Source: Escherichia coli (GTDB taxonomy: Bacteria > Pseudomonadota > Gammaproteobacteria > Enterobacterales > Enterobacteriaceae). Taken from it: 64,000 bases of DNA. Below are positions 46,584-50,317 of the stretch, one piece after another. How positions within the stretch are numbered: position 1 is the stretch's first letter; the number at the start of each line of letters is the position of its first letter. The notes under the pieces were generated by a model. That model had not been told where the DNA came from and searched no databases. It was given only the letters and a program-made list of their open reading frames with translations. The position numbers and the translations under genes were made by a program. The stretch lies in the NCBI RefSeq assembly GCF_024700885.2, contig NZ_CP117016.1. The stretch is one strand, 5' to 3'.

Positions 46584-47129
<546 letters not shown>

Positions 47130-47138
47130 GAGAATTGC

Positions 47139-47930
47139 ATGAGCAGTAACTTCAGACATCAACTATTGAGTCTGTCGTTACTGGTTGGTATAGCGGCCCC
47201 CTGGGCCGCTTTTGCTCAGGCACCAATCAGTAGTGTCGGCTCAGGCTCGGTCGAAGACCGCGTCACTCAACTTGAGCGTATTTCAAATGCTCACAGCCAG
47301 CTTTTAACCCAACTCCAGCAACAACTCTCTGATAATCAATCCGATATTGATTCCCTGCGCGGTCAGATTCAGGAAAATCAGTATCAACTGAATCAGGTCG
47401 TGGAGCGGCAAAAGCAGATCCTGTTGCAGATCGACAGCCTCAGCAGCGGTGGTGCAGCGGCGCAATCAACCAGCGGTGATCAAAGCGGTGCGGCGACATC
47501 AACGACGCCGACAGCTGATGCTGGTACTGCGAATGCTGGCGCGCCGGTGAAAAGCGGCGATGCAAACACGGATTACAATGCAGCAATTGCGCTGGTGCAG
47601 GATAAATCCCGCCAGGATGACGCAATGGTGGCATTTCAGAATTTCATCAAAAATTACCCTGATTCAACTTACCTGCCAAACGCCAATTATTGGCTGGGTC
47701 AGTTAAACTACAACAAGGGTAAAAAAGATGATGCGGCGTATTATTTTGCTTCGGTAGTGAAAAACTATCCGAAGTCACCGAAGGCTGCAGATGCGATGTT
47801 TAAAGTCGGCGTCATCATGCAGGACAAAGGTGACACCGCAAAAGCGAAAGCCGTATACCAGCAGGTTATCAGTAAATACCCTGGTACTGATGGCGCTAAA
47901 CAGGCGCAAAAACGTCTGAACGCGATGTAA
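47139..47930 (+). CDS. cpoB: Cell division coordinator CpoB (YbgF), TPR protein, 263 aa
   Basis: Signal peptide, coiled-coil and TPR-like C-terminus; follows pal. Confidence 0.94.
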   Translation: MSSNFRHQLLSLSLLVGIAAPWAAFAQAPISSVGSGSVEDRVTQLERISNAHSQLLTQLQQQLSDNQSDIDSLRGQIQENQYQLNQVVERQKQILLQIDSLSSGGAAAQSTSGDQSGAATSTTPTADAGTANAGAPVKSGDANTDYNAAIALVQDKSRQDDAMVAFQNFIKNYPDSTYLPNANYWLGQLNYNKGKKDDAAYYFASVVKNYPKSPKAADAMFKVGVIMQDKGDTAKAKAVYQQVISKYPGTDGAKQAQKRLNAM

Positions 47931-48094
47931 TGCATAACACACGACCAGAAGTCGCATTATTTCTGGTCGTGTCGTGCGAATCATAAGCAGTTGAGTGATC
48001 TACATCGAAATTTTTGTTGCGCTCAAGTCTGAAATCAGTAATATATGCCGCCGTTGCCACGGGATATCAAACAAACCGAAAGCAACGAAAAAGT

Positions 48095-48170
48095 GGGTCG
48101 TTAGCTCAGTTGGTAGAGCAGTTGACTTTTAATCAATTGGTCGCAGGTTCGAATCCTGCACGACCCACCA
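48095..48170 (+). tRNA. lysT: tRNA-Lys (anticodon UUU)
   Basis: 76-nt GGGTCGTTAGCTCAGTTGGTAGAGCAGTTGACTTTTAATCAATTGGTCGCAGGTTCGAATCCTGCACGACCCACCA; anticodon loop CTTTTAA; encoded CCA. Confidence 0.97.
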
Positions 48171-48198
48171 ATCGCTAAGGTGGACGCGGTAGTAAAAC

Positions 48199-48270
48199 GT
48201 GAAGGATAACGTTGCGTCAGCAACGGCCCGAAGGGCGAGACGAAGTCGAGTCATCCTGCACGACCCACCA
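48199..48270 (+). repeat. Spacer repeat ending in a duplicated tRNA-Lys 3' end (copy 1)
   Basis: GTGAAGGATAACGTTGCGTCAGCAACGGCCCG...TCATCCTGCACGACCCACCA recurs at 48694-48763; the last 20 nt equal the tRNA-Lys acceptor/T-arm end. Confidence 0.8.
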
Positions 48271-48305
48271 CTAACCTAGTTAGTTGTAGTATCCAGCGTA
48301 GTATC

Positions 48306-48381
48306 GGGTGATTAGCTCAGCTGGGAGAGCACCTCCCTTACAAGGAGGGGGTCGGCGGTTCGATCCCGTCATCACCCACCA
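48306..48381 (+). tRNA. valT: tRNA-Val (anticodon UAC)
   Basis: 76-nt GGGTGATTAGCTCAGCTGGGAGAGCACCTCCCTTACAAGGAGGGGGTCGGCGGTTCGATCCCGTCATCACCCACCA; anticodon loop CTTACAA. Confidence 0.97.
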
Positions 48382-48383
48382 CC

Positions 48384-48459
48384 GGGTCGTTAGCTCAGTT
48401 GGTAGAGCAGTTGACTTTTAATCAATTGGTCGCAGGTTCGAATCCTGCACGACCCACCA
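48384..48459 (+). tRNA. lysW: tRNA-Lys (anticodon UUU)
   Basis: Identical 76-nt tRNA-Lys sequence. Confidence 0.97.
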
Positions 48460-48510
48460 CTAATTACGGTGGGTTCGGTGGAAGTAGTTTGTAGTATCCA
48501 GCGCAGTATC

Positions 48511-48586
48511 GGGTGATTAGCTCAGCTGGGAGAGCACCTCCCTTACAAGGAGGGGGTCGGCGGTTCGATCCCGTCATCACCCACCA
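48511..48586 (+). tRNA. valZ: tRNA-Val (anticodon UAC)
   Basis: Identical 76-nt tRNA-Val sequence. Confidence 0.97.
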
Positions 48587-48589
48587 CTC

Positions 48590-48665
48590 GGGTCGTTAGC
48601 TCAGTTGGTAGAGCAGTTGACTTTTAATCAATTGGTCGCAGGTTCGAATCCTGCACGACCCACCA
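48590..48665 (+). tRNA. lysY: tRNA-Lys (anticodon UUU)
   Basis: Identical 76-nt tRNA-Lys sequence. Confidence 0.97.
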
Positions 48666-48693
48666 ATTTTAACATCAAACTCAGATGTTAAGC

Positions 48694-48763
48694 GTGAAGG
48701 ATAACGTTGCGTCAGCAACGGCCCGTAGGGCGAGCGAAGCGAGTCATCCTGCACGACCCACCA
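48694..48763 (+). repeat. Spacer repeat ending in a duplicated tRNA-Lys 3' end (copy 2)
   Basis: Near-identical to 48199-48270. Confidence 0.8.
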
Positions 48764-48811
48764 ATTTTAAAGATTGGTTCCGAGTAGAAATCTTTCAGGT
48801 AACACCCGTAT

Positions 48812-48887
48812 GGGTCGTTAGCTCAGTTGGTAGAGCAGTTGACTTTTAATCAATTGGTCGCAGGTTCGAATCCTGCACGACCCACCA
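48812..48887 (+). tRNA. lysZ: tRNA-Lys (anticodon UUU)
   Basis: Identical 76-nt tRNA-Lys sequence. Confidence 0.97.
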
Positions 48888-48920
48888 TCCTGAATGATTA
48901 AAGCAGCATAATCCCGCAAG

Positions 48921-48996
48921 GGGTCGTTAGCTCAGTTGGTAGAGCAGTTGACTTTTAATCAATTGGTCGCAGGTTCGAATCCTGCACGACCCACCA
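48921..48996 (+). tRNA. lysQ: tRNA-Lys (anticodon UUU)
   Basis: Identical 76-nt tRNA-Lys sequence, followed by a terminator. Confidence 0.97.
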
Positions 48997-49004
48997 ATGT
49001 AAAA

Positions 49005-49027
49005 AAGCGCCCTAAAGGCGCTTTTTT
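49005..49027 (+). terminator. Rho-independent terminator of the tRNA operon
   Basis: AAGCGCCCTAAAGGCGCTT hairpin followed by TTTTT. Confidence 0.85.
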
Positions 49028-49273
49028 GCTATTCAGGCATCTCTCAATTTCAATTCTTAACCCAGATGACATACTCCGCGTTTGCTGCGTAAACAACTTT
49101 ACGTCGGAGAAATAAGACGCAAAGTGTGGCATTCGGCATCTCATACGTAATTCGAGTGACTTTTCCCCACCATTCGACTATCTTGTTTAGCATATAAAAC
49201 AAATTACACCGATAACAGCGAATATTACGCTCATGTCGGTTTTAACGTTAAGCCTGTAAAACGAGATGGTAAG

Positions 49274-50317
49274 ATGAGCGTGATGTTTGATCCAGACACG
49301 GCGATTTATCCTTTCCCCCCGAAGCCGACGCCGTTAAGCATTGATGAAAAAGCGTATTACCGCGAGAAGATAAAACGTCTGCTAAAAGAACGTAATGCGG
49401 TGATGGTTGCCCATTACTATACCGATCCCGAAATTCAACAACTGGCAGAAGAAACCGGTGGCTGTATTTCTGATTCTCTGGAAATGGCGCGCTTCGGTGC
49501 AAAGCATCCCGCTTCTACGTTGTTAGTCGCTGGGGTGAGATTTATGGGAGAAACCGCCAAAATTCTCAGTCCGGAAAAAACAATTCTGATGCCGACACTT
49601 CAGGCTGAATGTTCACTGGATCTCGGCTGCCCTGTTGAAGAATTTAACGCATTTTGCGATGCCCATCCCGATCGTACTGTCGTCGTCTACGCCAACACTT
49701 CTGCTGCGGTAAAAGCGCGCGCAGATTGGGTGGTAACTTCAAGCATTGCCGTCGAACTTATTGATCATCTGGATAGTTTGGGTGAAAAAATCATCTGGGC
49801 ACCTGACAAACATCTGGGGCGTTACGTGCAAAAACAGACGGACGCAGACATTTTATGCTGGCAGGGTGCCTGCATTGTGCATGATGAGTTTAAGACTCAG
49901 GCGTTAACCCGCTTGCAAGAAGAATACCCGGATGCTGCCATACTGGTGCATCCAGAATCACCGCAAGCTATTGTAGAGATGGCGGATGCGGTCGGTTCCA
50001 CCAGTCAACTGATCGCTGCTGCGAAAACATTGCCACATCAGCGACTTATCGTGGCAACCGATCGGGGTATTTTCTACAAAATGCAGCAGGCGGTGCCAGA
50101 TAAAGAGTTACTGGAAGCACCAACCGCGGGTGAGGGCGCAACCTGCCGCAGCTGCGCGCATTGTCCGTGGATGGCCATGAATGGCCTTCAGGCCATCGCA
50201 GAGGCATTAGAACAGGAAGGAAGCAATCACGAGGTTCATGTTGAGGAAAGGCTGCGAGAGAGGGCGCTGGTGCCGCTCAATCGTATGCTGGATTTTGCGG
50301 CTACACTACGTGGATAA
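49274..50317 (+). CDS. nadA: Quinolinate synthase A, 347 aa
   Basis: [37 protein letters not shown] matches NadA; Fe-S cysteines. Confidence 0.96.

Follow-up and report, generated by a model that had tools for sequence, protein, structure and literature searches.

Two spacers of a seven-gene tRNA cluster in Escherichia coli carry repeats that end like tRNA-Lys, and the question is what these repeats are: scars of recombination, decayed tRNA genes, attachment sites, or an element of their own. The window analysed is a stretch of 64,000 nucleotides from contig NZ_CP117016.1, and the cluster in it is none other than the common lysT operon of E. coli. Features lie on the plus strand unless stated otherwise. 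ARAGORN and the Rfam tRNA model each call exactly seven tRNAs in the region, in the order Lys-Val-Lys-Val-Lys-Lys-Lys: lysT at 48095–48170 (79.2 bits with the Rfam tRNA model, its position matching K-12 lysT), valT at 48306–48381, lysW at 48384–48459, valZ at 48511–48586, lysY at 48590–48665, lysZ at 48812–48887 and lysQ at 48921–48996. Exact-string matching shows the five tRNA-Lys(UUU) genes to be identical to one another, as are the two tRNA-Val(UAC) genes, so that the number, identity and order given in an earlier note on this DNA are confirmed. The Val-Lys unit is present twice, with 99% identity between the copies. The two Val units match at 99% over 99 nt (direct-repeat family D2) and include a leader repeat, TTGTAGTATCCAGCGTAGTATC, at 48284–48305 and 48489–48510. 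The operon ends in a Rho-independent terminator at 49001–49027, read directly from the sequence, with a GCGCC/GGCGC stem at 49007–49021 and a T-run at 49022–49027; PMC4176162 describes it as the terminator of the lysT operon. Our simple terminator scan missed this feature and flagged only the minus strand of a hairpin (P2) described below. A sigma-70 promoter scan of 47850–49300 returned no match.

Identity of the spacer repeats

The repeat, direct-repeat family D4, lies in the lysT-valT and lysY-lysZ spacers. The two copies match at 94% between 48192–48239 and 48687–48734, and the match resumes past a 2-nt indel up to 48270 and 48763, giving lengths of 79 and 77 nt. The repeat reported in the earlier note is thus real, if slightly longer than the roughly 70 nt claimed. 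It does end in a copy of the tRNA-Lys 3' end, although the exact copy is 18 nt and not 20: the shared stretch, ATCCTGCACGACCCACCA, corresponds to tRNA positions 59–76, and the two bases just before it are TC in the repeat and GA in the tRNA. This 18-mer occurs seven times in the window, in the five genes and in two pseudo-3' ends (48253–48270 and 48746–48763), against 0.00 matches expected in dinucleotide-preserving shuffles. Taken as indel units, both repeats begin at the base that immediately follows a tRNA-Lys gene. The first, TLR-1, is a 100-nt unit at 48171–48270, and the second, TLR-2, is a 98-nt unit at 48666–48763, whose direct repeat with the real lysY end reaches 25 nt (ATCCTGCACGACCCACCAATTTTAA).

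We identify both spacer repeats as tRNA-linked repeats (TLRs), held in Rfam as RtT (RF00391), with a probability of about 0.93. TLR-1 falls within an RF00391 match at 48102–48270 (60.6 bits) and TLR-2 within one at 48597–48763 (55.0 bits), both above the gathering threshold of 45. These full matches include the tRNA body, whose T arm adds to the score by aligning to the model's own T-arm-like 5' part. Searched without the tRNA, the spacer scores 42.5 bits (E 1.5e-7), just below threshold, and since it alone matches model positions 51–130, the similarity lies in the non-tRNA core. Other features also agree with this assignment. The repeats lie downstream of a stable-RNA gene, carry 18 nt of its end, and resemble other TLRs in their core, also when compared directly with the K-12 tyrT and rrnB sequences. 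The published hallmark of TLRs is a final 18–19 bp that copies the upstream gene's 3' end exactly (PMC8144298).

The element has been described before, and it is poorly understood. PMC8144298 credits TLRs to Egan & Landy 1978 and Rudd 1999, and counts 22 of them at ten K-12 loci, with one to five per locus. Our search finds five RtT matches in the K-12 lysT operon, one past each tRNA-Lys, which fits that published count. The K-12 elements share with those of the window the locus, the core and the 18-nt terminal tRNA-Lys copy. The two in the window correspond to the K-12 elements past lysT and lysY, with matching positions, so that two of the five K-12 copies are present, and those past lysW, lysZ and lysQ are absent as precise deletions. 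In existing annotation, NCBI PGAP applies the label "RtT sRNA" only to free-standing terminal copies and misses those that abut a tRNA.

Predicted fold and the core beside other genes

In a TLR, a structured core that is conserved precedes an 18–19 nt copy of the upstream stable-RNA gene's 3' end, which is always present. The core comprises hairpin P2 (CGUUGC/GCAACG), hairpin P3 (GCCC-GWA-GGGC) and a hairpin of variable sequence, P4. In the Lys elements, an upstream arm, CGUGAAGGAU, is predicted to pair with the first bases of the pseudo-3' end, AUCCUGCACG, as a closing helix, P1. The modelled Lys fold is a four-way junction of tRNA size (75–77 nt) that carries the tail ACCCACCA-3'. In TLR-1, the P1 5' arm lies at 48198–48207, P2 at 48210–48225, P3 at 48226–48236, P4 at 48239–48247 and the pseudo-3' end at 48253–48270, the first 10 nt of which form the P1 3' arm. 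TLR-2 has a leader hairpin followed by the 5' arm, P2 and P3, and its pseudo-3' end is at 48746–48763.

The minimum free energy (MFE) fold of TLR-1 is −28.5 kcal/mol (z −3.4), and TLR-2 folded as a whole unit gives z −3.5. The MFE folds (z −3.4 and −2.1) contain P1 in both window copies and P2 and P3 in the lysT copy; that of the lysY copy (48689–48763) pairs differently in the core. We also compared 25 Lys and Arg elements in an alignment. Cells predicted to pair do so in 84.6% of cases, compared with 27–44% when partners are slid. The covariation score of 0.125 exceeds the 0.048 of shuffles, and none of 500 shuffles attains 0.125. P4 pair 47–54 occurs as five pair types, and the P4 stem takes 37 different sequences among 111 cores. 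P2 and P3 are nearly invariant in the short-form alignment and so are uninformative on pairing, for or against. P1 has a conserved A.G mismatch in the Lys elements and forms 9 of 10 pairs. The 5' regions of TLRs pair best with the 3' end of their own host. The covariation supports the four-way junction fold.

A scan for the core in genomes of about 100,000 species located it past tRNA-Lys (27 copies), tRNA-Tyr (23), tRNA-Arg-ACG (8) and tRNA-Pro (3), and past 5S rRNA (10). The tRNA-linked copies end in the last 16–19 nt of the host tRNA (18–19 in all but one copy), and the 5S-linked copies end in the 5S 3' end. The K-12 rrnB T1-T2 spacer has the same arrangement of core and host 3' end, and the part copied there comprises 13 nt of 5S and the first 5 nt of its trailer. 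We also considered a retroviral-PBS-like origin, suggested by the 18 nt being tRNA positions 59–76, and set it aside because the mature 3' end is not the reference point of the 5S-linked repeat. TLR-bearing hosts span many genera of Gammaproteobacteria. Orthologous arrays with TLRs occur in Citrobacter, Phytobacter, Enterobacter, Pluralibacter and Erwinia, and the orthologous TLRs are older than the Escherichia-Citrobacter split. The core is also found in free-standing tandem repeats of about 74 nt in Alcanivorax, Pseudomonas, Pectobacterium and Brenneria, in which GGA motifs sit in the loops of the hairpins, a trait of CsrA/Rsm-binding RNAs. Our Rfam scan of the 5S-linked and free-standing cores found no matching family, apart from a sub-threshold match to AaHKsRNA22.

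The rtT RNA and the 178-bp repeats of tyrT (rttR), likewise under RF00391, have homologous P2, P3 and variable hairpins and the junction GAGU(A/C)|AUCC; like the window's elements, they end in the host tRNA 3' end and form a closing helix in which an upstream arm pairs with that pseudo-3' end. The tyrT units are a long form of about 175 nt, with a segment resembling the 5' half of the T arm, the tpr reading frame and a tRNA-Tyr tail, whereas the Lys TLRs are a short form with about 45 nt fewer between the arm and P2. The sRNAs RrA, RrB and RrF are TLRs located between the dual terminators of rrnA, rrnB and rrnD (PMC8144298). They share with the Lys TLRs the core ACGUUGC..GCAACGGCCCGGAGGGUG and an end taken from the upstream gene, in their case 5S rRNA. 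They have GGA motifs in the loops of their hairpins, and in vitro they bind both Hfq and CsrA (PMC8144298). The window's Lys TLRs, in contrast, have a predicted P3 loop of GAA or GUA and a P4 loop of GAA; the GGA of their GAAGGAU sits inside the P1 stem, and they lack the several loop-exposed GGA motifs of the CsrA-binding type. CsrA-binding scores of tRNA-operon TLRs are below 0.01 (PMC8144298). The sRNAs from 3' external and internal transcribed spacers of tRNA operons, such as 3'ETS-leuZ, are likewise spacers or trailers set free when the operon transcript is processed (PMC8144298), but their sequence is unrelated to that of the Lys TLRs.

The predicted fold raises the possibility that the repeats are decayed tRNA genes, that is, pseudo-tRNA-Lys of which only the 3' ends remain. 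The size, four-way junction, closing helix and CCA tail all recall a tRNA. In the Arg version, the closing helix has 14 positions (12 paired), mimics an acceptor plus T stem and is followed by ACCA, and long-form TLRs also hold the 5' half of the host T arm. Nevertheless, the spacers yield no tRNA call from ARAGORN or from the Rfam tRNA model, even at E<=10, and they contain no detector-recognised cloverleaf with an anticodon arm, in agreement with the earlier view that they are not tRNAs. Before position 59 the sequence shows no relation to tRNA-Lys and instead matches the Tyr-, Arg-, Pro- and 5S-linked elements; the core does not align significantly to the D or anticodon arms of an ancestral tRNA, which also counts against decay. 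Different tRNAs decaying independently could not converge on one core, and we regard descent from a tRNA gene as extremely improbable.

Another possibility is that the repeats are remnant attL and attR sites of an element that integrated at a tRNA-Lys 3' end and was later mostly deleted. Integrases that target tRNA genes typically leave direct repeats extending from the T loop to the gene's 3' end. The direct repeats here have that extent, and the lysY copy passes the 3' end (25 nt). They are, however, separated by only about 80 nt, with no ORF, integrase or cargo between them. Searches with the core gave no genuine matches in phage records, and the plasmid matches are to Mb-sized or non-mobilizable records that are probably misfiled chromosomes. 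Five occurrences in one K-12 operon, and others past 5S rRNA, are also unlike site-specific integration. With no genuine mobile-element match among phages or plasmids, we dropped the attachment-site idea, to which we attach very little weight.

Presence and absence among strains

The TLR sites of the lysT operon are polymorphic. In a sample of twelve E. coli arrays, every site is either occupied or vacant, the difference being exactly 100, 98, 98, 99 or 156 nt. One sampled match, H30, is the valU operon and not the lysT locus. The operon carries from 0 to 5 TLRs, with five in K-12, two in the window and none in some strains. The indels are bounded by the 18-mer and range from 98 to 156 nt. Strains EC100, UPEC-455U, 2c3 and 132 lack TLR-1 through a deletion of precisely 100 nt, and EC100, UPEC-455U and APEC 102026 lack TLR-2 through one of precisely 98 nt. 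The window itself has an empty site between lysW and the valZ leader (48459/48460), exactly where K-12 has a 98-nt TLR; the spacer is 51 nt in the window and 149 nt in K-12, and the flanks otherwise match. A second empty site lies past lysZ (48887/48888), where K-12 and D72 have a 99-nt TLR and a lysZ-lysQ spacer of 132 nt, as opposed to 33 nt in the window. Just after 49032, K-12 and several other strains have an insertion of one or two 156-nt units, each a long-form TLR plus a second copy of the terminator, as judged by comparison with K-12 and CE0007a. Whole-TLR queries of 5426 complete genomes, a count distinct from the site-by-site occupancy of the twelve arrays, found the lysT-type TLR in 3549 and the lysY/lysW-type TLR in 4092.

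The copy number of the array, which the earlier note had proposed comparing across E. coli strains, also varies, with 4–6 Lys and 1–2 Val genes. This variation, together with the 99% duplication of the Val-Lys unit and the precise gain and loss of TLR units at the 18-mer, speaks for the view that the repeats are only scars of unequal crossing-over between tRNA-Lys genes, consisting of leftover 3' ends and arbitrary spacer. The part of this claim that stands is that recombination shapes the array. That the repeats are mere footprints is contradicted by the spacer sequence itself, a conserved core that adjoins Tyr, Arg and Pro tRNAs and 5S rRNA across Gammaproteobacteria, each time with the host's own end. 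The covariation-supported hairpins in the core and the orthologous TLRs that predate the Escherichia-Citrobacter split also argue against it, and we consider the scar explanation very unlikely. Because the core occurs with different hosts and the terminal copy is the published hallmark, the pseudo-3' ends are intrinsic to a distinct conserved element. They are substrates of recombination rather than its by-product.

Processing, excision and meaning of the elements

Probes to lysT-operon spacers detect a precursor of about 1100 nt in K-12 (PMC4176162). Co-transcription and trailer processing as described here are taken from that K-12 study. By extension, the TLRs would be transcribed within this single transcript of about 1100 nt, and RNase P cleavage at the next tRNA would leave a TLR in the long 3' trailer of pre-tRNA-Lys. 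The pseudo-3' end probably mimics the tRNA's 3'-processing determinant, and the trailer carrying the TLR would then be released or degraded. At the DNA level, the real and pseudo 3' ends form direct repeats of 18–25 bp with a spacing of about 100 bp. A TLR is excised precisely when this pair recombines or slips, and exchange between identical tRNA-Lys copies might move a TLR, or duplicate or delete tRNA units. Such events account for the differing occupancy of the five sites among strains.

A more speculative proposal, which we think has a small chance of being correct, is that TLRs are not passive spacers but a modular, tRNA-sized RNA organised around an insertion into a partial copy of the host gene's 3' end. 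The insertion point would be the T loop after position 58 in tRNAs and an analogous point in 5S rRNA, and the closing helix would be kept complementary to whichever host 3' end is carried. The Arg form would then be a full acceptor/T-stem minihelix mimic with an ACCA tail. The RNA could act as a substrate or decoy for enzymes that process the 3' or 5' ends of tRNAs, and the core family would span Gammaproteobacteria, including the free-standing tandem repeats of about 74 nt.

The sole functional claim for tRNA-operon TLRs, an effect on the stringent response, has been retracted (PMC8144298). Since some strains have no TLR in the operon, any function of these elements must be dispensable. In the lysT operon, TLRs are dispensable and recombination-prone, and they may be neutral passengers. 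The locus adds nothing new in kind on TLRs; a closing helix matched to its host and a core this widely distributed could guide experiments, though they do not make the finding at lysT surprising. For annotation, both spacers should be labelled as TLR/RtT elements, not as pseudo-tRNAs, att sites or recombination scars. The lysT locus illustrates TLRs as highly polymorphic hot spots for precise deletion and for change in tRNA copy number.

The Lys/Val array and its spacer repeats

ARAGORN, run over the entire 64-kb window, calls seven tRNA genes, all on the plus strand. They form the lysT operon, in which tRNA-Lys(UUU) is encoded at 48095-48170 (lysT), 48384-48459 (lysW), 48590-48665 (lysY), 48812-48887 (lysZ) and 48921-48996 (lysQ), and tRNA-Val(UAC) at 48306-48381 (valT) and 48511-48586 (valZ). 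The Rfam tRNA model concurs, at 79.2 bits for each Lys gene and 65.9 bits for each Val gene. The five Lys genes are identical by exact-string matching, as are the two Val genes, and the seven-gene array described in the earlier note is thereby borne out. A terminator hairpin and T-run, read from the sequence, follow lysQ at 49001-49027. An E. coli chromosome matches this region at 100% identity. Further upstream, Rfam reports the CpoB/ybgF intercistronic RNA thermometer (RF02782) at 47030-47168 (+), with 142.2 bits, directly upstream of cpoB and thus at its known location.

A repeat is shared by two spacers, lysT-valT (135 nt) and lysY-lysZ (146 nt). Positions 48192-48239 and 48687-48734 are 94% identical and, past a 2-nt indel, the alignment extends to 48270 and 48763. 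Both repeats terminate in the 18-mer ATCCTGCACGACCCACCA, which is tRNA-Lys positions 59-76 and occurs seven times in the window (five genes and two pseudo-3' ends) against a chance expectation of 0.00. The repeat ending in a tRNA-Lys 3' end is therefore real, but the exact copy is 18 nt rather than the 20 first claimed; the two bases 5' of the 18-mer are TC in the spacer repeats versus GA in tRNA-Lys. ARAGORN and the Rfam tRNA model make no tRNA call in the spacers, in keeping with the initial view that the repeats are not tRNAs.

The repeats belong to an already described family at a known locus, the tRNA-linked repeats (TLRs) or RtT RNA (RF00391). Rfam scans place RF00391 at 48102-48270 (60.6 bits) and 48597-48763 (55.0 bits), above the gathering score of 45 bits; both matches take in the tRNA body, aligned there with a T-arm-like 5' portion of the model itself. 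On its own, the spacer (48171-48270) scores 42.5 bits, below the gathering score, with an E-value of 1.5e-7 over RtT model positions 51-130, so the similarity sits in the non-tRNA core. Agreement with the RtT consensus is near-exact across AACGUUGC....GCAACGGCCCGAAGGGCGAG and again at CGAGU.AUCC. The K-12 lysT operon has five RtT matches, one directly after each tRNA-Lys, and the K-12 tyrT locus, the site of the family's first description, holds four copies of the same core, each ending in the tRNA-Tyr tail ATCCTTCCCCCACCACCA. PGAP annotates only the free-standing terminal units, as RtT sRNA; TLRs directly adjoining a tRNA receive no label, probably owing to the overlap of the Rfam match with the tRNA.

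The account in PMC8144298 traces the earliest sighting of TLRs to Egan and Landy in 1978 and credits Rudd's 1999 catalogue with 22 TLRs at ten K-12 loci, one to five per locus. An early claim that the tyrT rtT RNA affects recovery from amino-acid starvation has since been retracted, TLRs of tRNA operons are described there as having no known function, and binding of Hfq and CsrA in vitro has been demonstrated only for three rrn-linked TLRs, RrA, RrB and RrF (PMC8144298).

A constant core with host-specific ends

The core pattern GCRACGRCCCGWAGGGYGA was searched for in about 100,000 species, each represented by a single genome, and tRNA prediction was run on each of the at least 120 loci found. 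The core follows tRNA-Lys(UUU) in at least 27 copies, tRNA-Tyr(GUA) in at least 23, tRNA-Arg(ACG) in at least 8 and tRNA-Pro(UGG) in at least 3. Among the matches listed, the genera include Citrobacter, Enterobacter, Klebsiella, Pluralibacter, Erwinia, Pantoea, Brenneria and Gilliamella, and 12-20 nt past the core stand the last 16-19 nt of the adjoining tRNA, its own kind each time (18-19 nt in all copies except one). About 30 of the listed matches are chance hits that lack the P2 hairpin and lie mostly within genes of GC-rich organisms.

At least ten more of the listed copies lie after 5S rRNA, and their final bases, AACTGCCAGGCAT, are the 5S 3' end; those at L011, L064, L066, L067, L084, L092, L093, L111, L114 and L118 end in the 5S 3'-end copy AACTGCCAGGCATCAAAT. 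For these copies Rfam reports no family, just a sub-threshold match to AaHKsRNA22. The arrangement is confirmed in K-12 between the rrnB T1 and T2 terminators (positions 300-435 of locus L124). This rrnB copy is presumably the T1-T2 terminator spacer present in many cloning vectors.

A core conserved across hosts refutes the reading of the spacer repeats as a pure recombination scar. Their reading as decayed tRNA genes is likewise refuted, since different tRNAs could not have converged by decay on a single core and none of the detectors recognises a tRNA in them. Remnant att sites do not fit either: there is no integrase and no cargo, the searches run gave no genuine phage or plasmid matches, and several copies per operon and the 5S-linked copies are out of keeping with such an origin. 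Of the "phage" records that match the TLR core, just one, OR850888.1 (Salmonella phage S.Kent 1-2-1, 7356 bp; match H58, 1444-1495), is not obviously a chromosome contig; being short and unannotated, it may be host DNA.

The lysT copy (48194-48270, 77 nt) is predicted to fold into a four-way junction at -28.5 kcal/mol (z -3.4), with the minimum-free-energy (MFE) structure making up 51% of the ensemble. The closing helix P1 pairs CGUG.AGGAU with AUCCU.CACG at the start of the pseudo-3' end, P2 is CGUUGC/GCAACG and P3 is GCCC/GGGC; a small third hairpin completes the core, and ACCCACCA is left as a free tail. The MFE structure of the lysY copy keeps P1 and P3 with a rearranged core; its z-score is -2.1 over 75 nt and -3.5 over the full 98-nt unit. 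We counted pairs for the four-helix structure in an alignment of 25 distinct short-form elements from Lys and Arg hosts. Paired cells reach 84.6%, versus 27-44% once the 3' partners are shifted 1-3 columns, and the covariation score is 0.125 versus 0.048 in shuffles, none of 500 scoring as high. Seven pairs change on both sides. P4 and P1 are the informative helices, P4 pair 47-54 occurring as GC, CG, AU, UA and UG and P1 changing en bloc from Lys to Arg hosts. In this alignment P2 and P3 are almost invariant and so lend no covariation support. Across all contexts, 37 distinct P4 stem sequences occur in 111 cores, and P2 occurs as CGUUGC/GCAACG, CGUUGC/GCGACG and CGUCGC/GCGACG.

In a duplex-energy matrix, the 5' region of each host class has its strongest pairing with the 3' end of its own host, at -18.1 kcal/mol for Tyr, -18.9 for Arg and -11.9 for Lys. 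Non-cognate ends are weaker by 1.4 to 9 kcal/mol, with the smallest margin for Lys and with Pro tied with Arg. The Arg form pairs the arm GCACCAGGGAGGAU with AUCCUCCCGGAUGC, leaving ACCA over, and as modelled mimics an acceptor-plus-T-stem minihelix. In long-form TLRs (tyrT, the terminal Lys unit and Pro) the core is, in addition, immediately preceded by the 5' half of the T arm of its host, so that a full TLR would read as a partial 3' copy of its host gene interrupted at the T loop by the core.

Variation among E. coli strains

The comparison set for the window comprised K-12, CE0007a and nine more E. coli genomes taken at even steps of the BLAST ranking. All five TLR sites are polymorphic in these arrays. 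Empty and filled spacers measure 35 and 135 nt after lysT, 51 and 149 nt after lysW, 48 and 146 nt after lysY, and 33 and 132 nt after lysZ; the site after lysQ has either no unit or one or two 156-nt units (TLR plus duplicated terminator). Each empty allele equals the filled allele minus exactly one unit bounded by the 18-mer, the bounding repeat being 25 bp at lysY. The footprints of unequal recombination proposed in the earlier note are supported to the extent of these precise indels, but not as a full account of the repeats, given the cross-host core. The number of TLRs in an operon ranges from 0 (EC100, UPEC-455U) to 5 (K-12), with 2 in the window; the TLR-free strains show that whatever the TLR RNA does is not essential. 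tRNA numbers also vary: APEC 102026 has six tRNA-Lys genes through a tandem copy of Lys and a 48-nt spacer, while four Lys go with one Val in STEC316 and with two Val in strain 132 (L126, L130 and L134, respectively).

The 156-nt units 3' of lysQ, present in many strains (L001 2598-2909; L002 2154-2309; L127, L129, L130) and absent from the window, consist of a long-form TLR and a duplicate of the operon terminator. Point mutations occur in some pseudo-3' ends (TW10828, for instance, has ...CGACACACCA), as expected if these ends are free of tRNA-like constraint. At a match coverage of at least 80%, the lysT-type TLR is present in 3549 of 5426 complete genomes; the lysY/lysW type is present in 4092 of 5426. 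TLRs also occur in orthologous Lys/Val arrays of Citrobacter, Phytobacter, Enterobacter, Pluralibacter and Erwinia, which makes the elements old; losses would be the simplest explanation for the empty E. coli sites.

Proposed working and relatives

The K-12 operon is transcribed as a single RNA of about 1100 nt, spacers included, from which RNase P separates the pre-tRNAs starting at the 3' end (PMC4176162). This leaves 130-150-nt trailers on tRNA-Lys that RNase II and PNPase shorten, and RNase E can cut the long spacers when RNase P is defective (PMC4176162). For the 5S-linked TLR, the repeated 3' end has been proposed to direct RNase E cleavage (PMC8144298). The Lys TLRs would thus be co-transcribed trailer modules in which the pseudo-3' end, held in helix P1, may reproduce the 3'-end processing context of a tRNA. 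At the DNA level, real and pseudo ends would serve as short direct repeats, leading to precise loss, and, together with the identical tRNA-Lys genes, could supply homology for unequal exchange.

In Phytobacter massiliensis (L120, minus strand, ~2680-2860), a diverged tRNA-Tyr-like sequence with GCA at the anticodon position passes from GAAGGTTCGA directly into the TLR core, then into ATCCTTCC and unrelated sequence. The arrangement resembles a T-loop fusion of a tRNA gene with a TLR and is consistent with recombination of a tRNA T arm with the T-arm-like segment of a long-form TLR.

Free-standing units of about 74 nt, often in tandem, occur in Alcanivorax sp. 24 (L029-L043; at least 15 loci in the one genome), Pseudomonas (L044, L058), Pectobacterium (L080-L081) and Brenneria (L099). 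They comprise an A-tract/hairpin/T-tract, the TLR core P2-P3, a GGA-loop hairpin (AUGGAU, AAGGAU) and CATAAAAAA. No stable-RNA gene adjoins them, and scans against Rfam matched no family; their GGA loops are reminiscent of CsrA/Rsm-binding RNAs. The interest that remains lies in the TLR family overall, with its host-matched closing helix and its free-standing relatives.
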